Part shown: positions 3,272-59,455 of the stretch, piece by piece
How the letters are laid out: the number at the start of each line of letters is the position of its first letter
Numbering within the stretch: the stretch's first letter is position 1
Sequence record: OP114734.1
DNA length: 64,000 nucleotides
Strand: one strand, 5' to 3'
DNA from: Escherichia phage vB_ESM-pEJ01
Made by a program: the position numbers and the translations under genes
The notes under the pieces: model-generated
Told to the model about the DNA's origin: nothing
What the model saw: the letters and a program-made list of their open reading frames with translations, nothing else
Database searches by the model: none

Positions 3272-5071
3272 ATGCTAATGTTTAATAACTCCGTTAAATG
3301 GTTTACCGGAATTGTAGAAAACAGGGAAGACCCATTAATGTTAGGCCGAGTTCAGGTTAGGATTCATGGTATACATCCTTCGCTATCCGCACACGGTGAC
3401 ATTCAAGGTCTTCCAACCGAAGATCTATTATGGATTACTCCAGTACAAGATATTACAAGCGCGGCGATCTCCGGTATAGGTCAAAGCCCTACTGGTATTG
3501 TTGAAGGTTCAATGGTATTTGGTTTGGCCTTAGATGAACGTTATTTAAACTGCGTTATTCTGGGTACTATTGCCGGACAATATACAGAGAAACCACTCAC
3601 TACAGAAGGTTTTTGCGACCCTTCTGGTGCATATCCGCGTTATATTGGTAATGATGTTAATATTCTTGCTCGTGGTGGTATTAACCCAGAAACCGGACAA
3701 ACAACAAAACCTGATAGTGTCTATATTCGAGATGAAAACACTGGAGTTGCAGTAAATCCAGACGACGAGCCATTAGACCAAATTCCGGTTGACGATAACC
3801 CAGAATACACAATAGAAAAAATGCTGCGGGGCGATGAGGGATATCGCGAGAAATGGTATCTTGATTCAGAAGGATATCCGACAATAGGCATCGGGCATTT
3901 GATCATTTATAAGAAAACCAGTGATCTGGGTATTATCAATAATGAACTTTCTAAGCTGGTAGGGCGTGAAGTTACAAACGGAAGACTTACCGCCGAAGAA
4001 GTTAGCAAAGTATTTGCTGACGATATAGAAAAGACTCGCCGTGATATGCGTAAACATCCACGCATTGCACCAGTTTATAATAAATGTAATGCTTCTCGTC
4101 GTATGGCATTAGAAAACATGGCGTTTCAAATGGGCGTAGGCGGATTGGGTAAATTTAAAAATAGTCTCGCTGCAATGTTAGCAGAAGACTGGAAAAAAGC
4201 CTATGATGGATTGCGTCAATCAGTATGGGCTAATCAAACTCCAGGACGTTCTAGCCGTGTTTCTAAAATTATTCTTACTGGTAACTTAGAATCATATGGC
4301 GTAATTGCTCCAAAGAAAGAGGAATCAATTTCGGATGATCCGCGAGCACGTTTGAGAAATGCCCGTATTGCTGCCTATAAGACGCAGAGAGCAGAAGAAG
4401 ACCCAGAAGCACCGTTTACCCCACAAGACACACGAATCATGTTTAAAGAGCCTAAGAGTTCGTATTCTGCAAGGTATCCATATAACCATGTGTACGAGTC
4501 AGAGAGCGGTCATATTATCGAGATTGATGATACTCCTTCTCATGAGCGATATCATCGTAAACATCCTTCTGGTACATTTGAAGAAACCAGACCGGACGGA
4601 ACGAGGGTAGAAAAGATTGAAGGCGATGATTATCTGATCGTTAAACAAGGCCGGAAAGTAAACGTCAAGGGTAATTTGCAAGTTGTTGTTGAAGGTGACG
4701 CGCAAGTTTATTATATGGGTAATGTGATGCAAACCGTTGATGGTAACGTCACTGAATTTATTCGTGGCAATGTTAATCAGACCGTTGAAGGTACTGCTAA
4801 CATGCATGTTGTTGGTGATGTTATCGCACAGCTTGACGCTAATTTGACGGCTAACGTCAAGGGTAATGCTGAATTAATGATCGATGGTAACACTACCGAA
4901 ACAATTAAAGGTAACTATGATTTAACCGTTGAGGGTAATTTTAATATGACAGTCAATGGCACTAAATCAGATCAGGTTAATGGTGACTGGTCCCGTAATT
5001 GTGGTGCAAGCGTTAAAGATATTGCATCTGGTACAGTTAAAATTGATGGTAGCCGTATTGATCTTGGGTGA
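3272..5071 (+). CDS. 5: baseplate central spike / tail lysozyme gp5
   Basis: N-terminal OB region (WF.G.VE...LGRV.VR.HG), central T4-lysozyme-like domain (EGY..KWYLDSEGYPTIGIGHL), C-terminal beta-helix octapeptide repeats (V.G.). Confidence 0.95.
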   Translation: MLMFNNSVKWFTGIVENREDPLMLGRVQVRIHGIHPSLSAHGDIQGLPTEDLLWITPVQDITSAAISGIGQSPTGIVEGSMVFGLALDERYLNCVILGTIAGQYTEKPLTTEGFCDPSGAYPRYIGNDVNILARGGINPETGQTTKPDSVYIRDENTGVAVNPDDEPLDQIPVDDNPEYTIEKMLRGDEGYREKWYLDSEGYPTIGIGHLIIYKKTSDLGIINNELSKLVGREVTNGRLTAEEVSKVFADDIEKTRRDMRKHPRIAPVYNKCNASRRMALENMAFQMGVGGLGKFKNSLAAMLAEDWKKAYDGLRQSVWANQTPGRSSRVSKIILTGNLESYGVIAPKKEESISDDPRARLRNARIAAYKTQRAEEDPEAPFTPQDTRIMFKEPKSSYSARYPYNHVYESESGHIIEIDDTPSHERYHRKHPSGTFEETRPDGTRVEKIEGDDYLIVKQGRKVNVKGNLQVVVEGDAQVYYMGNVMQTVDGNVTEFIRGNVNQTVEGTANMHVVGDVIAQLDANLTANVKGNAELMIDGNTTETIKGNYDLTVEGNFNMTVNGTKSDQVNGDWSRNCGASVKDIASGTVKIDGSRIDLG

Positions 5072-5079
5072 GGTAACTA

Positions 5080-5646
5080 ATGGTTGAAATTCTTCCGATG
5101 AGTTCAAAATTGGAGGATATCAGCGAGCGAGAAATCTTTGAGGTGGTGTTCTCTTATAAAGCAACGCCACCGGATGCAAATACCACATACACGATTAAAG
5201 AGTTTAAGATCAGCGAGTATCGCCCTAATAAGGGCGTTACCGTTGAAGAAACTAAAATATCTGGTGAGTATCGGGATAGTTTTTCGCTTGGCGCGGATTC
5301 TCTTAAATATATAACGAAAGATAGAATTAAAAAATCTGCCGGAAGTTTTGATGATTTACCAGATCCAACTACCGCAGATCTATATTATTTTAACGCTCCT
5401 ACACGTCTACAGGAGGTTTATACTTATAAAGTAACCCTAACCTATATCCAATCTGTTTCAGAGTCTTCTGGTGGTTCCGGTGAAGGAAATAGTGGTGGTT
5501 CCAATAGCCGAGAGGGTGCTGGTGAAACTAATCCGCCTCCGGTAGTAACCGAGCACACAATAGAGAAAGTTTATACTCAAACCGTTTTTGGAAATTGGGA
5601 TGTGTGGAGTAAACAGTTAAGAGATTATGTACATAGGGGTGTTTAA
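5080..5646 (+). CDS. hypothetical protein at the gene 5.1 position
   Basis: 188 aa, RBS GAGGT, Gly/Ser-rich linker; position between gene 5 and the PAAR gene. Confidence 0.5.
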
Positions 5647-52621: not shown

Positions 52622-52834
52622 TTATAATGCACCATCGAGCAATTGCTCTAATGTGTATCCTGAATAGTCTTTTTCAATCAGGATATATTTTCCTACTCGT
52701 TTAATACAACCGCGCATTTCAACGTATTCTGCGTAGTTGATGGTGCGAGTTGTTCCATCTTCTAGCAAAGCAGTACCGATTTCGTTAATGCGGTCATAAG
52801 TTACGTCGGTAATGATGATTTCGATGTTAGCCAT
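52622..52834 (-). CDS. hypothetical protein (70 aa)
   Basis: start moved to ATG at 52834 (RBS AAGGAG); N-terminus MANIE identical to the ORF at 54721. Confidence 0.55.
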   Translation of the reverse strand: MANIEIIITDVTYDRINEIGTALLEDGTTRTINYAEYVEMRGCIKRVGKYILIEKDYSGYTLEQLLDGAL

Positions 52835-52870
52835 TTGATACTCCTTAGTAGTTCGTTTCGGTATGTGTGC

Positions 52871-52900
52871 ATTATAGGGGATCACCGATCCCCCTGTCAA
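52871..52900 (-). promoter_or_regulatory. PeSL-like early promoter unit 1 (TTGACA-N18-TATAAT, palindromic spacer)
   Basis: - strand -35 at 52895-52900, -10 at 52871-52876; spacer GGGGATC...GATCCCC. Confidence 0.6.
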
Positions 52901-52907
52901 CAACTTT

Positions 52908-53427: not shown

Positions 53428-53760
53428 TTATAGTCTCCTGAATGGATCATCACGTAAATCAATATCTTTTAAGAACTCATCCCATGAATGGCGGATATTA
53501 TTCTTAATTCTCCAGATAAGCGAAGGGATTGAACGCTCTCCCATCTGGAAGTATGGATCATATGATCCGTATGCCCAATATGCTACTACAATTCCGCAAT
53601 CAGTGCAATAGTATTCTATCTCGCTTGCTGGCGACCAAAGTCCATCAATATGATCACGGATCTTGCTTTCAATGTTATGACTATGGCAATCAGGGCAACG
53701 GATGCAATGACCTTGTTTGTCATAATTTGACGTTAGCGAATACTTAAACAATCTCATCAT
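53428..53760 (-). CDS. Zn-ribbon protein (110 aa)
   Basis: CIRCPDC...H and CTDCG cysteine pairs; start overlaps upstream stop by 4 nt. Confidence 0.6.
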   Translation of the reverse strand: MMRLFKYSLTSNYDKQGHCIRCPDCHSHNIESKIRDHIDGLWSPASEIEYYCTDCGIVVAYWAYGSYDPYFQMGERSIPSLIWRIKNNIRHSWDEFLKDIDLRDDPFRRL

Positions 53761-54473
53761 AGATCCTTATTGGCTTCAAATACTGCCTTTGCGAATCCTC
53801 GCGGGGTAAGTGACCTGATAGTCTTTGTTCTGGTTCCTTTCCCGCCTAGCTTAGAATGCTGTTTACTGTACCCTTTATTAATCGGCAACGGTTTCTTTTC
53901 TGGCATTATAAAGCCTTGTCCGGTCCATAAGCAAGTCTTTTTCGGGTACATATCACGGGCGGCAATATACTCAGGAAACGTAGGATGTATATCATCTTCC
54001 GGCAAATAACCGCCATATTCCCACGGGTGGAACATGTAATCAGGCTTACGCCACATGCTAGAGATAACGCTTACAGGATTCTCTATCATGTAGGGAACTC
54101 CTAGCCATTCACCCAAATAAGCGGTTATTTTAGCTGCCCGTACATCATGAACTTGAATCAACGGTCCTTGTTCTAGTTTCTTTCGTTCAAAGTGCGCAGC
54201 GCCACTAACAGCTAAATTGGTGCACGGTGGGAATGCAAAGATAATATCCGGTTTCCCCCATTCAAGGTCCATTGCTCTTTCCAGCCAGTTCAAATCAATC
54301 CAGGTGTTTACATAGGTAATGTTTTGATGTTCAAATCGGGTATTATATTTTTTGTATGTACCGTGGTCGCCATCGTCAGCATTAAAGCAGATCACCTTAT
54401 GACCTGCTTTAGCCCATTCTAACCCCATTATCCCCGATCCGTCAAAGTTGCAGAATATTAATTTTTGTTTCAC
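53757..54473 (-). CDS. compact DNA C5-cytosine methyltransferase-like protein (no large target-recognition domain)
   Basis: motif I FCNFDGSGIMG, motif IV FAFPPCTNLAVSGA (Pro-Cys), motif VI MIENPVS, motif IX-like IRSLTPRGFAKA in canonical order; GTG start overlapping upstream TGA. Confidence 0.65.
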   Translation of the reverse strand: MKQKLIFCNFDGSGIMGLEWAKAGHKVICFNADDGDHGTYKKYNTRFEHQNITYVNTWIDLNWLERAMDLEWGKPDIIFAFPPCTNLAVSGAAHFERKKLEQGPLIQVHDVRAAKITAYLGEWLGVPYMIENPVSVISSMWRKPDYMFHPWEYGGYLPEDDIHPTFPEYIAARDMYPKKTCLWTGQGFIMPEKKPLPINKGYSKQHSKLGGKGTRTKTIRSLTPRGFAKAVFEANKDL

Positions 54474-54721
54474 GCTGCCCCCATTGGTTTGATAGTAACA
54501 GAATCTAAAAGACCTTTGTTAGCCAGTTCGCGGCAAGTTTTCAGATCCGCAACTTCCCAGCCAGCCGCAATCAGGTTATCGATTAGGCTGTTAGCAACTT
54601 CTTCGCTCATGAAAGAGCACTGTTTGCCGATGGTGTAGCGTACACGCTGTAATTTCAGTTTACGGAAGCCTTTAACGTTCAGGTCTTTAGCGATTTTCTT
54701 TGCGGTTTCGATGTTAGCCAT
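54470..54721 (-). CDS. hypothetical protein (83 aa), first gene of the four-gene operon
   Basis: ATG with RBS GGAGAA directly downstream of PeSL unit 2; N-terminus MANIE. Confidence 0.55.
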   Translation of the reverse strand: MANIETAKKIAKDLNVKGFRKLKLQRVRYTIGKQCSFMSEEVANSLIDNLIAAGWEVADLKTCRELANKGLLDSVTIKPMGAA

Positions 54722-54761
54722 TGTTTGATTCTCCTAAGTGGTATCTCGTCTTGATGGTTGT

Positions 54762-54790
54762 ATTGTAGGGGAGTTATCCTCCCCTGTCAA
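54762..54790 (-). promoter_or_regulatory. PeSL-like early promoter unit 2 (TTGACA-N17-TACAAT)
   Basis: palindromic spacer GGGGAGGATAACTCCCC. Confidence 0.6.
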
Positions 54791-54804
54791 CACTTTTTAT
54801 AAAA

Positions 54805-54972
54805 TTATTTGTTAATTTCTGGTGCGTTGCTAGGATAGTAACCTTCTTTAACTCCGAGATATTTCGCAACCATCCCTACAATCTTCTGTGCTACTACAAT
54901 GTCAAATTTCAGATAATCTTCGCCGTGGGTTTCAATGATATATGCTTCACATGCTGCTTTAGTCTCGAACAT
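54805..54972 (-). CDS. small protein (55 aa), paralog of 58083-58250
   Basis: manually found ORF MFETKAACEAYIIETHGEDYLKFDIVVAQKIVGMVAKYLGVKEGYYPSNAPEINK; RBS GGAGAA. Confidence 0.55.
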   Translation of the reverse strand: MFETKAACEAYIIETHGEDYLKFDIVVAQKIVGMVAKYLGVKEGYYPSNAPEINK

Positions 54973-55005
54973 TTTGATTCTCCTATTTCGTTTCGTTATG
55001 TGTGT

Positions 55006-55034
55006 ATTATAGGGGATCTCCAGATCCCCGTCAA
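55006..55034 (-). promoter_or_regulatory. PeSL-like early promoter unit 3 (TTGACG-N17-TATAAT)
   Basis: palindromic spacer GGGGATCTGGAGATCCC with two GATC. Confidence 0.6.
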
Positions 55035-55048
55035 CAACTTTTTTAAAA

Positions 55049-55330
55049 TTATTCGTGATTAGTTTCGATGTTGTGCATTTTGCACCAGTTCAGCCAATCA
55101 CCCAGATCCTGATAGTTAATGCTTTTATCTGCTGCCATCGTTTTTGTCTTGATACCCATATGTGCGTTATGAGTAAGCATTTTTACAGTGAACTCAATTT
55201 TATCACCTTTAGCTTTAACATCAACCAGTTTGGTCCACTGGCTACCAGCGCCGCGAATGTTCATACCAACGATGTTTCCGATGTATGCTTCTTTGTTTTT
55301 CAGGATTTCGGTTGCTTTGATGAATTTCAT
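55049..55330 (-). CDS. hypothetical protein (93 aa)
   Basis: ATG with RBS GGAGAA downstream of PeSL unit 4. Confidence 0.55.
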   Translation of the reverse strand: MKFIKATEILKNKEAYIGNIVGMNIRGAGSQWTKLVDVKAKGDKIEFTVKMLTHNAHMGIKTKTMAADKSINYQDLGDWLNWCKMHNIETNHE

Positions 55331-55363
55331 TTTTGATTCTCCAGTTCGTTTCGGTATGTGTGT

Positions 55364-55392
55364 ATTATGCTATGTTCTTACTTTGGTGTCAA
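55364..55392 (-). promoter_or_regulatory. PeSL-like early promoter unit 4 (TTGACA-N17-CATAAT)
   Basis: no spacer palindrome. Confidence 0.5.
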
Positions 55393-55400
55393 CAACTTTT

Positions 55401-55670
55401 TTAGATATTTTCAGAAATAAATTTTAAAACTTGACGTAAATGTTTCTCATCTTTGATAGTCGCCGGAAGTTCTTCTTTTACTTCCTGTGCAAGATAGATA
55501 TTTCCGTTCCAAGTGAAAGATCCGTCTTCGTTTACGCGATAGCTGAACATCCACTCGCAATCATTTTCGATTTCATATACACACAGAAGGGTGTAATCGT
55601 TAAAGCTATTGATTTCAAGGTCGAAGCCGTGACGTTTTGCAAAGTTGGTAGTGGTTTTAGTCAGCGCCAT
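55401..55670 (-). CDS. hypothetical protein (89 aa)
   Basis: ATG with RBS GGAGAA downstream of PeSL unit 5. Confidence 0.55.
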   Translation of the reverse strand: MALTKTTTNFAKRHGFDLEINSFNDYTLLCVYEIENDCEWMFSYRVNEDGSFTWNGNIYLAQEVKEELPATIKDEKHLRQVLKFISENI

Positions 55671-55710
55671 TGTTTGATTCTCCTAAGTGGTATCTCGTTT
55701 CGATGGGTGT

Positions 55711-55739
55711 ATTATGCTATAGGCGTGATCTGGTGTCAA
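55711..55739 (-). promoter_or_regulatory. PeSL-like early promoter unit 5 (TTGACA-N17-CATAAT)
   Basis: leader nearly identical to unit 6. Confidence 0.5.
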
Positions 55740-55763
55740 CAACTTTTTTAAAATTTTATGCAA

Positions 55764-55788
55764 TAAAAAGCCGACACTAAGGTCGGCT
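55764..55788 (-). terminator. intrinsic terminator after family member A
   Basis: perfect 7-bp stem AGCCGAC/GTCGGCT, U-run on - strand. Confidence 0.65.
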
Positions 55789-55795
55789 AATAAAA

Positions 55796-56104
55796 TCATT
55801 TAGACAAATAATCATTCAGTGCAATCCGGTCGGCATGTTCCGGCGTTACGTCAATCGCAATCAGTTTAACGCGTGCTTTCTTGCGACCTGGGTTTTCTCG
55901 TAACCAGTGCTCATGACCGTGAACATTTTTATACTGCGATGCTTCTTCGAAGGTACGGATCGGACCTGGGTAATCAGCGTAAAGGATCTCTAGGTCATCG
56001 GTGATGTAAAAATATACGTTGTAATTGCTGTTCTCTAGTTTAAGCAGAGACATTCGGAACATTGGGAGATTTTCGCGGGTAAATTCAAAGATATTATCTT
56101 TCAT
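55796..56104 (-). CDS. H-x-H-W family small protein A (102 aa)
   Basis: start moved to ATG at 56104 (RBS GAGGA); C-terminal HGHEHWLRENPGRKKARVKLIAIDVTPEHADRI. Confidence 0.55.
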   Translation of the reverse strand: MKDNIFEFTRENLPMFRMSLLKLENSNYNVYFYITDDLEILYADYPGPIRTFEEASQYKNVHGHEHWLRENPGRKKARVKLIAIDVTPEHADRIALNDYLSK

Positions 56105-56130
56105 AGTATTATCCTCAATAGTTGGATGAA

Positions 56131-56150
56131 ACGGGGGCTTAACGCCCCGT
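56131..56150 (-). other. hairpin of the GGGGC-TTAAC-GCCCC family
   Basis: same stem-loop as at 52601-52620 and, in the gene-sense orientation, 20002-20018. Confidence 0.4.
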
Positions 56151-56153
56151 ATA

Positions 56154-56441
56154 TTAAAACAGCCCTTCCTGTACACCGTAGTAGAGTTCATCGCTGATAA
56201 TTTCATTAATGCGACGGTGTGCATATTCCTGATTTGCGAAGTTGTCAGCAAGTTCTACTTTAGTTTCGCCGTCATGAGTCCATTTAGTGATAACTTTACC
56301 ATCTGCAAATTTGAAGTTGAACTCTTTAGCTACCGCATCGCGTACCAGACGTGCAAACTTGTTGTTGCGGATTGCATTGTCGGTTTCGTGTGCAGCGTGA
56401 GCGAATTTGTTAACTTTCAGAGTGATAGTAATGTATGCCAT
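56154..56441 (-). CDS. hypothetical protein (95 aa), paralog of 59727-60038
   Basis: RLVRDAVAKEFNFK versus REVRKALAKEFNTK in 59727-60038; RBS GGAGAA. Confidence 0.55.
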   Translation of the reverse strand: MAYITITLKVNKFAHAAHETDNAIRNNKFARLVRDAVAKEFNFKFADGKVITKWTHDGETKVELADNFANQEYAHRRINEIISDELYYGVQEGLF

Positions 56442-56487
56442 AATTTGATTCTCCTAGTTAGAAAGTGTATCTCGTTTCGATGGGTGT

Positions 56488-56516
56488 ATTATGCTATACA
56501 CCCGATCTTATGTCAA
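56488..56516 (-). promoter_or_regulatory. PeSL-like early promoter unit 6 (TTGACA-N17-CATAAT)
   Basis: leader nearly identical to unit 5. Confidence 0.5.
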
Positions 56517-56522
56517 CACTTT

Positions 56523-56801
56523 TTATAAAATAATTTTTTGATATTTTTCTATGATGTTCGTGTAAGTCACATCAACCGCTATCACCGTTGCTTCGAATCC
56601 ACCGTTTAGCCAATGGCTATGGTCATGATCGTGAAAGAAACCAAGACCAGTACGAAGACCTTCTTTATATTCGGCGCGTACATTTAGATCATCATCGATA
56701 AACAGATAAAACCATGAATTTTTACTAGGATTGATGATACAACCTTTCAGATTAGGGAGAATATCACGACTAAGAATAAACTTATCACCTACTTTGAACA
56801 T
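56523..56801 (-). CDS. H-x-H-W family small protein B (92 aa)
   Basis: start moved to ATG at 56801 (RBS GAGGAA); C-terminal HDHDHSHWLNGGFEATVIAVDV. Confidence 0.55.
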   Translation of the reverse strand: MFKVGDKFILSRDILPNLKGCIINPSKNSWFYLFIDDDLNVRAEYKEGLRTGLGFFHDHDHSHWLNGGFEATVIAVDVTYTNIIEKYQKIIL

Positions 56802-56815
56802 AATATTTTCCTCAC

Positions 56816-57124
56816 TTATAAAGTTTGACCGTTGTTTTTCGCGTAATGCTGAATGCGTGCTTGATCTGCTTCCGCTGGTGATAGATTCCATGCAACCACT
56901 ACAACTTCTGACGCATCGTCATCCGTTTCTGATACCCAATGATTGTGATTCATACAGTTATTTGCTATCGAGTGAGCAAATGATTTCATCACTGGAGACG
57001 TATAATCATAGTAACGGATTTTCAGATTTTCATCAACATACAAGTAGATCGTATAAGGTTTATATTCAGTAACCAGTAACAGACAGTTACGCAATTCTGG
57101 GAAAATCTTTTTAGTTAATTTCAT
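56816..57124 (-). CDS. H-x-H-W family small protein C (102 aa)
   Basis: start moved to ATG at 57124 (RBS GAGGA); C-terminal HNHWVSETDDDASEVVVVAWNLSPAEADQ. Confidence 0.55.
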   Translation of the reverse strand: MKLTKKIFPELRNCLLLVTEYKPYTIYLYVDENLKIRYYDYTSPVMKSFAHSIANNCMNHNHWVSETDDDASEVVVVAWNLSPAEADQARIQHYAKNNGQTL

Positions 57125-57125
57125 T

Positions 57126-57344
57126 TTATAATCCTCGGTCTCGGCTATAGTACACGGTACGCCATACAATTTCATGTTTCGTGTCGCTCCAGCACACGAT
57201 CTCATTTACTCTTAAATCTTTGTTATCAACAAAAGATGAACATTGTGACGCTTCTTTCATCATTTTATCTGCTGTTTTCTCATCAAATACAGCACAGATT
57301 TCTTTATACACTCGATAATCTTTGAATTGACTCTGAATACCCAT
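57126..57344 (-). CDS. hypothetical protein (72 aa), tandem paralog of 57304-57561
   Basis: SQFKDYRVYKEI...KMMKEASQC versus SKFKEYKAYQQI...KMMEDASKC. Confidence 0.5.
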   Translation of the reverse strand: MGIQSQFKDYRVYKEICAVFDEKTADKMMKEASQCSSFVDNKDLRVNEIVCWSDTKHEIVWRTVYYSRDRGL

Positions 57345-57561
57345 AATTAACACCATTCCAACCAATTGTTTTTGAGAAAACGTCTATCCACTGTTGAGTG
57401 TAGCATGTTTCTTTCCATGATACAATACGAGTGGAATAATGGTTTTTGTTTCCAGAAAAGGACGGGCATTTTGATGCATCTTCCATCATCTTTTCGGCGA
57501 ACTCTGGTGCGTATACTCGCAGGATCTGTTGATATGCTTTGTATTCTTTAAATTTGCTCAT
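57304..57561 (-). CDS. hypothetical protein (about 85 aa), tandem paralog of 57126-57344
   Basis: overlaps the downstream paralog by about 40 nt; start ambiguous (57561 or 57567). Confidence 0.5.
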   Translation of the reverse strand: MSKFKEYKAYQQILRVYAPEFAEKMMEDASKCPSFSGNKNHYSTRIVSWKETCYTQQWIDVFSKTIGWNGVNYGYSESIQRLSSV

Positions 57562-57826
57562 AATCATTCACTACCTTATCAGCTTCTTTTGTTGTTTTTA
57601 CATCAACTGCGATAACTCGTAAAGGTTCGTCATGGTTCCACCAGTGGTCATGAATATCAGCTTGTGATTTATCACCAAAGGAATCACGAATATCATTTTT
57701 ACATTTATAGCTAATGTGACCTTCATAGTCAACATAAAGGTAATTATCGAAAATCGGCGTTTTTAAGATCATACCGAAAAATCTTTCTTTGTGTGTCTTA
57801 TCCAGCGTTACAGTAATTCGCATCAT
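57548..57826 (-). CDS. H-x-H-W family small protein D (92 aa)
   Basis: RBS AAGAGGAA; C-terminal IHDHWWNHDEPLRVIAVDVKTTKEADKV. Confidence 0.55.
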   Translation of the reverse strand: MMRITVTLDKTHKERFFGMILKTPIFDNYLYVDYEGHISYKCKNDIRDSFGDKSQADIHDHWWNHDEPLRVIAVDVKTTKEADKVVNDYEQI

Positions 57827-57838
57827 AATATATTCCTC

Positions 57839-58018
57839 TTAGAAAGGGATGGTCATTTCTTGAGCTTGTACATTCTCGTTAGGATTAAACTTCATCCAAC
57901 CGATATTGTCTACCAGCATATGTACATTTTTATCATATCCTACGTGAGTAGTCAACACTAAATGTGCTTTACCTTCAACGATGATTTCCATGTACTTCTG
58001 AACTTCGATAGCTTTCAT
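57839..58018 (-). CDS. hypothetical small protein (59 aa)
   Basis: manually found ORF MKAIEVQKYMEII...; RBS GGAGAA downstream of PeSL unit 7. Confidence 0.45.
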   Translation of the reverse strand: MKAIEVQKYMEIIVEGKAHLVLTTHVGYDKNVHMLVDNIGWMKFNPNENVQAQEMTIPF

Positions 58019-58050
58019 TTTGATTCTCCGTTTGTTGTCTTGATGGGAGT

Positions 58051-58079
58051 ATCTTACTACTCCCTTTAATCATTGTCAA
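58051..58079 (-). promoter_or_regulatory. PeSL-like early promoter unit 7 (TTGACA-N17-TAAGAT)
   Basis: palindrome GGGAGTA...TACTCCC overlaps the -10. Confidence 0.5.
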
Positions 58080-58082
58080 CTA

Positions 58083-58250
58083 TTATTTGTTAATTTCCGG
58101 TGCGTTGCTCGGATAGTAACCTTCTTTAACACCTAGATATTTTGCAACCATTCCGGTGATCTTCTGTGCTACTACGATATCGAATTTCAGGTAGTCTTCA
58201 CCGTGGTTTGCTACAATGTATGCTTCGCATTCTGCTTTAGTCTGGAACAT
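58083..58250 (-). CDS. small protein (55 aa), paralog of 54805-54972
   Basis: start moved to ATG at 58250; MFQTKAECEAYIVANHGEDYLKFDIVVAQKITGMVAKYLGVKEGYYPSNAPEINK. Confidence 0.55.
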   Translation of the reverse strand: MFQTKAECEAYIVANHGEDYLKFDIVVAQKITGMVAKYLGVKEGYYPSNAPEINK

Positions 58251-58284
58251 TTTTGATTCTCCTATATCTCGTTGGTATGTGTGC

Positions 58285-58313
58285 ATTATAGGGGATCGGT
58301 GATCCCCTGTCAA
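58285..58313 (-). promoter_or_regulatory. PeSL-like early promoter unit 8 (TTGACA-N17-TATAAT)
   Basis: spacer GGGGATCACCGATCCCC on the - strand, same palindrome arms as unit 1 with inverted centre. Confidence 0.6.
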
Positions 58314-58320
58314 CAACTTT

Positions 58321-58623
58321 TTATTCTTCATCTTTATCTTGATATGCGTACTTCATAAATTTGTCTGCTACTTTGTCCGCGTTTTCAGGTTCTACGTCTG
58401 ACGCTAGGACAACAGCTAGTTCGGTTTTGTCGTTTCCATCATACCAATGATTATGAGTGTCGTTTTCTTCGATATAAAACGAATCGTTTGGAGTTGTGCG
58501 ACAATATACGTCTAAATTCCCATCGATATAAAAGATCCAATCCGAATACAAAATGATTGTTTTAGCAAGATTTTTATTGTCTCTTACAAAAGGTTCCGCG
58601 ACAAATAGCTTAGTTTGTTCCAT
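58321..58623 (-). CDS. H-x-H-W family small protein E (100 aa)
   Basis: start moved to ATG at 58623 (RBS GAGGAA); C-terminal HNHWYDGNDKTELAVVLASDVEPENADKV. Confidence 0.55.
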   Translation of the reverse strand: MEQTKLFVAEPFVRDNKNLAKTIILYSDWIFYIDGNLDVYCRTTPNDSFYIEENDTHNHWYDGNDKTELAVVLASDVEPENADKVADKFMKYAYQDKDEE

Positions 58624-58639
58624 AATATTTTCCTCAAAA

Positions 58640-58828
58640 TTATACAGCTTCGTAAACTTCCCAATGTTCAGCACCAACACGCTTAACGAAAAGGTTTTCT
58701 TTGATGTTATTCATAAACGTCTGGATGGATTTAATGCGGTTGGAAGGTTTCCAGTCTTCGTTGGCATTGCGGTGATACATAATATTACCAGTTCGCTTAT
58801 ATTCAGCAACCATTTTAAGACCACACAT
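58640..58828 (-). CDS. hypothetical protein (62 aa)
   Basis: ATG with RBS GAGGA; preceded by hairpin 58848-58866. Confidence 0.5.
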   Translation of the reverse strand: MCGLKMVAEYKRTGNIMYHRNANEDWKPSNRIKSIQTFMNNIKENLFVKRVGAEHWEVYEAV

Positions 58829-58847
58829 AATATTATCCTCAATTTGT

Positions 58848-58866
58848 GGGAGAGTATTACCCTCCC
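58848..58866 (-). other. hairpin GGGAGAGTATTACCCTCCC (degenerate PeSL-like element)
   Basis: palindrome containing a TAATAC -10-like hexamer; no clear -35. Confidence 0.35.
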
Positions 58867-58884
58867 GATTATTGTTATACTACA

Positions 58885-59187
58885 TTACGCAAAATGGCGT
58901 GTCAATGCTTCTTTTGCTGTTCCGCTAAGATTCTCGATCTCTCCTGGCATAACATCAACCGCCAGAACTTCTACAACATCCTCTGATCCTAACCAGTGAG
59001 TATGACCTTTGTAGAACTTGATATCCCATTTATCGCTATCGCTAGCCCACCACACATCACCGTCTATAAAGTTGATGTAAAGCACACTACGACACATTGA
59101 ATTAGTTACTTTCAATACTGCGCCTTTCATCTCTTCCACGGTATGGTCTTCCATTTTGAAGACCTCGCCTACCTTAACTTTTGCCAT
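58885..59187 (-). CDS. H-x-H-W family small protein F (100 aa)
   Basis: start moved to ATG at 59187 (RBS GGAG); C-terminal GHTHWLGSEDVVEVLAVDVMPGEIEN. Confidence 0.55.
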   Translation of the reverse strand: MAKVKVGEVFKMEDHTVEEMKGAVLKVTNSMCRSVLYINFIDGDVWWASDSDKWDIKFYKGHTHWLGSEDVVEVLAVDVMPGEIENLSGTAKEALTRHFA

Positions 59188-59188
59188 G

Positions 59189-59455
59189 TTACATGCTCCG
59201 AATATGTTTAGATGCATCTTCCAGTTCGTCGATAGTGACACTGTGAGCCAGTAAGTGTACTGGTTGTGGTTCTTCACCTTCCATAGTATTGATCAGATGA
59301 CCGTTTCCTGGGTGGAATGTATCGTTGCCGTTCCAAATAGCATACACATCATCTTCTGTTACGTAGATAATAAGTCCAATCGGTGATTCTGGTAATTGAA
59401 AAATTTTACCCACTGCATCTTTGCGATTGTTTACGATATCTTTTACTGTCTTCAT
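59189..59455 (-). CDS. hypothetical protein G (88 aa), possibly a divergent family member
   Basis: RBS GAGAGG; YVTEDDVYAIW...H.....LLAHSV..DELEDA loosely resembles the family layout. Confidence 0.5.
   Translation of the reverse strand: MKTVKDIVNNRKDAVGKIFQLPESPIGLIIYVTEDDVYAIWNGNDTFHPGNGHLINTMEGEEPQPVHLLAHSVTIDELEDASKHIRSM

Follow-up and report, generated by a model that had tools for sequence, protein, structure and literature searches.

The hyperplastic regions of T4-type phages are known to carry multigene families of paralogues, among them the T4 internal-protein loci and arrays of small early "ORFan" genes. In RB49-type phages a further element has been described, the promoter-early stem-loop (PeSL), about 100 bp in length, whose stem-loop is typically polyG...polyC and takes one of five possible positions with respect to the promoter, most often between −35 and −10 (Arbiol et al. 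2010, PMC2839356). PeSL206/205 of RB49/phi1 gave ~13,000 Miller units in a lacZ fusion and is a very strong promoter; wild-type PeSL promoters were nearly unclonable and acquired point mutations in −35 or −10 (PMC2839356). Termination or attenuation of upstream transcription by the stem-loop has been published for PeSL211/210 only, a PeSL mini-circle carrying open reading frames (ORFs) 191-194 was found, and it was speculated that the stem-loop may be a protein target (PMC2839356).

The present analysis concerns a 64,000-nucleotide (nt) stretch of Escherichia phage vB_ESM-pEJ01 (sequence record OP114734.1), called the window throughout, and two minus-strand genes within it, copies A and B, each encoding a protein of 55 amino acids (aa). 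Nucleotide comparison and the gene maps of RB49, phi1 and JSE identified the source as an RB49-like T4-type coliphage (Krischvirus; RB49/phi1/JSE type): a 4.3-kb region is 93-98 % nt-identical to 58 phage records, all of them Krischvirus (RB49, phi1, JSE, ECD7, GEC-3S and relatives). The copy A protein is 98-100 % identical to ORF191 of RB49, phi1 and JSE, and the gene arrangement in the window is of the phi1 type, without the ORF192 of RB49. All genes of the region are entered as "hypothetical protein" in every record.

The best explanation as a whole, to which a probability of about 0.8 is assigned, is that ORF191 (copy A) and ORF205 (copy B) are paralogous orphan early genes of Krischvirus, each lying in its own monocistronic PeSL cassette in a hyperplastic region. 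The pair and its promoters are largely known already: both genes have carried the label of hypotheticals from the RB49 genome onwards, their promoters have been published as PeSLs, and PHROG clustering implies the paralogy. What the present comparison adds is the old paralogy in quantitative form, concerted evolution of part of the gene and four natural deletions with resolved junctions.

The locus has the same composite anatomy and the same hyperplastic location as the PeSL and ORFan cassettes of RB49/phi1 (PMC2839356; Comeau et al. 2014, PMC4122927), and the loci are the very same as those of Arbiol et al., who assayed PeSL206/205 and found ORF191 on the mini-circle. In the text of that paper that was searched the flanked genes are unrelated ORFans and neither paralogues nor gene duplication are mentioned, whereas the two cassettes here carry paralogues (PMC2839356). 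The homology available for recombination therefore extends through the coding sequence.

Divergence and selection between the two copies

In the original prediction, made from the sequence alone, the two ORFs were said to encode the same protein with six substitutions, and this was found to be correct at the positions and on the strand given in Table 1. Three checks had been proposed with it, a pairwise dN/dS estimate, a survey of copy number in related phages and a structure prediction, and all of them were carried out. The proteins differ by E3Q, A7E, I13V, E14A, T15N and V32T, and the genes at 25 of 168 nt, distributed over codon positions 1, 2 and 3 as 3/4/18; in 16 of the 22 codons affected the change is purely synonymous. 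The NG86 method gave 0.055 non-synonymous (dN) and 0.94 synonymous (dS) substitutions per site with a ratio (omega) of 0.059; omega was 0.066 by maximum likelihood and 0.097 by LWL85. About 18 synonymous differences in 33.7 sites stand against 7 non-synonymous ones in 131.3 sites (Fisher test, p = 1e-9). When 25 substitutions with the same transition/transversion mix were placed randomly, 16.7 ± 2.0 residues changed, and six or fewer in 0 of 100,000 trials.

Since the substitutions are strongly biased towards synonymous sites, the earlier claim of many synonymous changes under purifying selection (omega ~0.06-0.10) stands. The accompanying statement that the DNA is much more diverged than the protein is right for synonymous versus non-synonymous rates but not for raw identity, where the gap is slight (85 % for DNA, 89 % for protein). 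Omega is significantly below 1 between the paralogues and each copy is conserved among its orthologues; both ORFs are genuine protein-coding genes under strong purifying selection. It could still be argued that the conserved element is a structured RNA or a DNA site and that the ORFs are incidental, since they are very short, belong to an orphan family and are nearly identical between the copies at the nt level in their 3' third. This is hardly credible, as the differences are concentrated at third codon positions, the frame, start, stop and Shine-Dalgarno (SD) sequence are kept in 22/22 intact copies, distant homologues conserve the protein (45-83 % aa identity) over saturated DNA, and the 3' third is the part most polymorphic at synonymous sites. 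A non-coding element was therefore rejected.

At the nt level both loci were compared in 13 of the 58 Krischvirus genomes. The A and B sequences formed two cleanly separate clades, with a mean dS of 0.076 within A, 0.096 within B and 0.90 between A and B, and with a dN of 0.003-0.006 within the clades. Twelve strictly fixed and eight quasi-fixed nt differences, 20 positions in all, separate the clades. From the between-clade and within-clade dS it follows that, measured by synonymous distance, the age of the duplication is ~10 times that of the sampled Krischvirus radiation, which bears out the earlier view of a duplication that is not recent (dS ~0.9 between the copies against 0.08-0.10 among orthologues). 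A recent duplication drifting neutrally, or one with a decaying pseudogene as its second copy, would accommodate the stop codon in copy A of phage FL20, the absence of copy A from five genomes and the loss of the B locus in two. It is, however, highly improbable in view of the dS of 0.9 with an omega of ~0.06, the conservation of both clades across the 13 genomes and the consensus promoters and SD sequences kept by both copies, and it was likewise rejected.

At residues 3, 14 and 15 the outgroup sequences (swi2 gp36, P0003, P0005 and P0007) agree with A, and only at residue 7 do they agree with B, which makes B the faster-evolving copy and leaves A with more of the ancestral residues. A separate observation is that the B copy of FL20 has the A-type residue E3. 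A McDonald-Kreitman-type table (4/8 fixed versus 5/13 polymorphic, p = 1) gave no sign of positive selection and no excess of fixed replacements.

The divergence is not evenly spread along the gene. At the clade level, fixed or nearly fixed differences affect 17 of codons 1-36 and none of the last 19 (Fisher p = 1.5e-4); for the window pair alone the same contrast is not significant (p ~0.2), and it becomes so only with the clade-level fixed differences. The last 57 nt contain polymorphisms only, and both clades share those at nt 117, 141 and 153. In PHB13 the A copy carries the usual B-type 3' haplotype and the B copy an A-type one, and in Brandy, which lacks an A copy, the B copy is A-type at nt 51-75. 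These patterns are taken to reflect gene conversion that occurred repeatedly between A and B, for the most part near the 3' end, and homogenised the 3' third; what stays specific to each copy is the 5' two-thirds, which encodes the predicted helix 1 and the greater part of helix 2.

The gene is present once in a divergent phage contig (L015, Logan SRR5584643), with 83 % identity to A and 78 % to B, and it immediately follows a homologue of ORF194, in the same order as at the A locus. There the 55-aa gene is joined to the preceding gene by overlapping stop and start codons, without a PeSL, so the cassette promoters are a Krischvirus-specific overlay. The same contig has, at 4285-5165, homologues of the window genes at 59189-59455 (57 %) and 55401-55670 (41 %).

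Instead of arising by duplication within the genome, the copies could be xenologues, one of them having arrived from a related phage lineage as a PeSL-flanked cassette or mini-circle; if a circle with a diverged homologue and the ORF192-204 block were integrated by homology in the Campbell manner, two bracketing copies would result. Such a route is consistent with the excision of PeSL cassettes as circles, one of them with ORF191-194, with copies that exactly bracket a block lost as a unit in Cognac and FL04, with homologues in unrelated siphoviruses, which imply horizontal movement of the gene, and with a dS near saturation. However, A and B are mutually closest (89 % aa identity, against at most 83 % for any other known homologue), and an exhaustive HMMER search of 1.84 billion representatives, in which the family formed ~4 true clusters, yielded no candidate donor lineage. 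Acquisition from outside is therefore considered unlikely, and paralogy by duplication is preferred.

Promoter cassettes and natural deletions

Each copy had also been said to stand behind its own GATC-palindrome promoter. Both hairpin promoters are present, but they are described PeSLs and no special feature of the pair. The boxes of copy A (TTGACG-17-TATAAT) match the sigma-70 consensus at 11 of 12 positions and those of copy B (TTGACA-17-TATAAT) at all 12. The 7-8 bp GGGGATC/GATCCCC stem was present in both the minimum free energy (MFE) and the centroid folds, with −13.6 and −15.1 kcal/mol for the whole PeSLs. The intergenic regions, 76 nt for copy A and 70 nt for copy B, start with an AT-rich tract that includes the stop of the preceding gene (TAATTTTAAAAAAGTTG TTGAC... 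and GAATAAAAAGTTG TTGAC...) and end in AGGAGAATCAAA(A)ATG. The SD sequence AGGAGAA lies 5-6 nt ahead of the ATG in both copies; for copy B, where it is 6 nt away, the start is the ATG at 58250 and not the upstream ATG of an 82-aa ORF. Every sequence feature that defines a PeSL was thus found (sigma-70 boxes, spacer stem-loop, AT tract, SD and start codon, hyperplastic orphan location) and the activity of one of the promoters is published, so these elements are already known.

Table 1. Positions of the two genes, their promoter-hairpin cassettes and related features in the window (UTR, untranslated region)
Feature	Position	Strand	Remarks
Copy A, 55-aa gene	54805..54972	-	orthologue of RB49 ORF191 (RB49p191) / phi1p191
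Copy B, 55-aa gene	58083..58250	-	orthologue of RB49 ORF205 / phi1p205
PeSL193/191 (copy A promoter)	54973..55048	-	AT-rich tract; −35 TTGACG 55034-55029; hairpin GGGGATC-TGGA-GATCCCC 55029-55012, filling the 17-bp spacer; −10 TATAAT 55011-55006; 5'UTR; SD AGGAGAA
PeSL206/205 (copy B promoter)	58251..58320	-	−35 TTGACA 58313-58308; hairpin GGGGATC-ACC-GATCCCC 58307-58291 in the 17-bp spacer; −10 TATAAT 58290-58285; 5'UTR; SD
PeSL191/190 (downstream of copy A, serving the next gene as promoter)	54722..54804	-	TTGACA; GGGGAG-GATAA-CTCCCC hairpin; TACAAT; SD; MFE −20.5 kcal/mol, z −3.7
PeSL205/204 (downstream of copy B)	58019..58082	-	TTGACA, in overlap with the stop region; hairpin GGGAGTA...TACTCCC covering a weak −10 (TAAGAT); SD; MFE −15.2 kcal/mol, z −4.5
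Third GATC-hairpin PeSL, ahead of an unrelated 70-aa gene	52835..52905	-	TTGACA-GGGGGATCGGTGATCCCC-TATAAT; GATC-stem copy at 52871-52900, with the GGGATC-N2-6-GATCCC pattern at 52878-52892
Block of 10 small orphan early genes (ORF193-204 equivalents) between copies A and B	55049..58018	-	deleted in Cognac and FL04

From what is published on such elements, host sigma-70 RNA polymerase would fire the near-consensus promoters right after infection, the GGGG...CCCC hairpin would act as a terminator or attenuator of upstream transcripts and so insulate each cassette, and the gene of each cassette would be translated from its SD sequence. A simple terminator scan did not call the hairpins of the pair, which are followed by UAUAAU and not by a U-run. 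The present comparison shows that the cassettes and the neighbouring PeSLs serve as substrates of homologous recombination, which in natural isolates has taken out either copy A alone or the whole intervening block, and that the 3' third of the gene is exchanged repeatedly between the copies with the 5' two-thirds staying copy-specific.

The GATC version of the stem is a sub-variant among PeSLs, others of which have GGGGAG...CTCCCC. The GATC pairs in the spacer could have a function of their own, either in a promoter strength dependent on Dam methylation state, which would distinguish incoming from newly replicated DNA, or as a recognition site for a recombination or nuclease protein, and the genes would then form a special regulatory class. 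In support of this possibility, GGGGATC...GATCCCC, counted as GGGATC-N2-6-GATCCC, occurs three times in the window where 0.02 is expected, the variant is kept at both loci in most genomes and 3/4 deletion junctions involve GATC PeSLs; the speculation of Arbiol et al. on the stem-loop as a protein target points the same way. On the other hand, one arm reads GGTC instead of GATC in JK32_B and phi1_A, where a G-T wobble preserves the stem, so it is the pairing that is conserved and not GATC. The other PeSLs do with the GGGGAG...CTCCCC stem, the third GATC PeSL drives an unrelated gene, and the crossovers lie at differing places, some of them outside the hairpin, as plain homologous recombination predicts. 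A GATC-specific function is thus very unlikely, and it too was rejected in favour of ordinary PeSL cassettes.

The PeSL modules (loop, −10 flank and UTR) are mosaic and have been swapped among loci independently of the gene. Given this mosaic structure, a co-duplication of promoter and gene cannot be shown.

Three further observations were made on the PeSLs themselves. The 3-nt hairpin loop reads ACC or its exact reverse complement GGT at orthologous PeSLs in different phages (L001 and L006-L014, upstream of both copies); both orientations also occur within the window at different PeSLs (58291-58307 versus 52876-52894), and some loci have a 4-nt loop, GGGA or TGGA, instead. These flips look like repeated small hairpin-loop inversion. 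Inversions of hairpin-flanked loops are known from chloroplasts, quasipalindrome template switching being a related process, and T4 quasipalindrome mutagenesis was reportedly described by Ripley. The spacer hairpin resembles the hairpin-loop inversions in that its 3-nt loop is found in both orientations at orthologous positions. Secondly, −10 is TATACT in place of TATAAT at several orthologous PeSLs, namely L005, L008 and L013 (G2248_A, MIZ4_B, phi1_A, phi1_B), L009 and L012, and such natural down-mutations may tune expression. Thirdly, the minus-strand genes that follow PeSL191/190 (54707-54721) and the third GATC PeSL (52820-52834) have identical first five codons (ATGGCTAACATCGAA, MANIE) and are otherwise unrelated, which indicates that PeSL homology extends into the start of the coding sequence.

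Copy number was determined by tblastn across the 58 Krischvirus records. Two copies are present in 51 genomes, one in seven and none in 0/58. Only the B-type copy is present in MIZ4, MIZ5, Brandy, JK32 and UPWr_E1, and a single A-type coding sequence in Cognac and FL04. In FL20 copy A (L003 948-1115) a TAC->TAA change at codon 45 truncates the conserved tail. Since there are natural isolates in which one copy or the other is gone or truncated, neither copy is individually indispensable.

In JK32 and Brandy copy A is replaced by a single chimeric PeSL, with its 5' part from PeSL193/191 and its 3' part from PeSL191/190. In MIZ4 PeSL193/191 is fused to the third GATC PeSL (186/185), with removal of ORF186-191. 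The FL04 junction has the end of ORF206 and a B-type −35, followed by the A-type loop, UTR and coding sequence, which places the crossover inside the PeSL (206/205 x 193/191). Cognac has a complete B-type promoter and 5'UTR joined to an A-type coding sequence, the crossover lying between the 5'UTR and codon 3, where ~20 bases surrounding the ATG are identical. The two cassettes form direct repeats of ~250 bp, 3.28 kb apart, whose recombination removed the intervening 3.28 kb (10 genes in the window) in Cognac and, independently, in FL04. The chimeric junctions of JK32/Brandy, MIZ4 and FL04 show PeSLs as crossover sites for insertion, deletion or replacement, in the same role in deletions as the PeSLs of RB49/phi1. 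The Cognac crossover and the gene conversion inside the ORF, in contrast, differ from the published PeSL cases.

Protein family and possible role

The product has a mass of 6.2 kDa and an isoelectric point of 5.2 (A) or 5.6 (B). In the AlphaFold2 model, with a predicted local distance difference test score (pLDDT) of 79, residues 5-16 and 18-39 form helices and the tail is extended; this tail, GYYPSNAPE, ranks among the best-conserved parts of the alignment. The protein is therefore predicted to be an acidic helical hairpin with an invariant extended tail. On a helical wheel helix 1 has almost no hydrophobic moment, so the position of residues 3, 7 and 14 on one face is merely geometric.

Both proteins match phrog_8009 over their full length, residues 1-55 of 55, with E values of 6.8e-38 (A) and 1.2e-38 (B); since this family carries no functional annotation, membership is uninformative on mechanism. 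The exhaustive HMMER search and a word-indexed search of 5.8 billion proteins gave no more than ~4 true clusters of the family. One hit, P0006, has the appearance of a chimera whose C-terminus is that of a histidine kinase, and the matches to long proteins (P0008-P0012) are weak multi-stretch noise. Outside Krischvirus, homologues were found in Swiduovirus siphoviruses (swi2, D10, SeSz-2 and Bas81) and, more distantly, in Sasha/Sergei-type phages. The siphovirus homologues, among them swi2 gp36 with 72 % aa identity, show a saturated dS with a dN of 0.23-0.25. In swi2 the homologue heads a small, divergently oriented gene pair located among packaging and portal genes and has a sigma-70-like TTGAAG-17-TAGAAT upstream. 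A conserved gene partner was not found, as swi2 gp35 and the other swi2 neighbours have no homologue in the window.

The protein probably acts stoichiometrically early in infection by binding a host or phage macromolecule, and it is probably an accessory factor of the host-takeover or anti-defence type, that is, a small early binder. The two copies are probably partly redundant, with some specialisation in helix 1. A more speculative and rather improbable extension is that the protein is a host-takeover or anti-defence factor so far overlooked, indispensable to Krischviruses and traded with unrelated siphoviruses; helix 1 (residues 3, 7 and 13-15) would then be kept distinct for different target variants, with conversion keeping the tail identical. 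This extension draws on the finding that at least one intact copy is present in 58/58 genomes while the surrounding genes come and go.

Several points weigh against the reading of the pair as paralogous cassette genes with a role of this kind. The nt-level comparison covers 13 of the 58 genomes, and the AlphaFold2 model comes from a 7-sequence alignment. The family phrog_8009 is tiny, orphan and of unknown function, and the second PHROG match, phrog_485, is weak (E 0.01-0.19) and of unknown function as well. No match was obtained in Pfam and NCBIfam at E <= 1, the best E value was 1 in a PDB sequence-profile search, and it was 3-7 with Foldseek against PDB and BFVD. As the McDonald-Kreitman-type comparison gave nothing, specialisation of the copies is not demonstrated, and the natural loss or truncation of either copy shows weak individual constraint. 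Finally, duplication within the genome and separate acquisition of two related cassettes cannot be told apart.

Neighbouring families and significance of the locus

None of the 10 neighbour genes tested, 8 of them inside the bracketed block, had a Pfam match. Much of the block between the 55-aa genes and of the region beyond (window 55796-59455) is occupied by a seven-member family of orphan paralogues of ~90-105 aa on the minus strand, with 17-28 % identity, at 55799-56110, 56526-56801, 56819-57124, 57551-57826, 58324-58623, 58888-59187 and 59192-59455. Their common motif is YLYID...HxHW...V.VIAVDV(T)P.EAD; one pair only was linked by BLASTP, and the members tested had no Pfam match. A further adjacent pair of paralogues, equivalent to ORF201/202, lies at 57126-57356 and 57304-57567 on the same strand (40 % identity over 63 aa, E 8e-14). 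The 238-aa gene at 53757-54473 (minus strand; RB49 ORF189) is annotated in relatives as a DNA methyltransferase or C-5 cytosine methylase and has an FPPCT motif, with no Pfam match at E <= 0.01; its specificity might bear on the question of the GATC stems.

Like the paralogue families of T4-type phages, the 55-aa pair consists of small, early, non-essential genes that were duplicated and diverged in a variable region and that vary in presence among close relatives. It differs from the other paralogue sets of the region (17-40 % aa identity) in its 89 % aa identity and its partial concerted evolution.

The significance of the pair by itself is small. The locus does, however, provide a natural example for the PeSL model, with four independent deletions whose junctions are resolved at the sequence level within 6 kb, one of them having used homology inside the duplicated gene and not a PeSL. 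Because every genome keeps at least one copy, this orphan stands out from its neighbours and can reasonably be considered for a knock-out or interaction screen.

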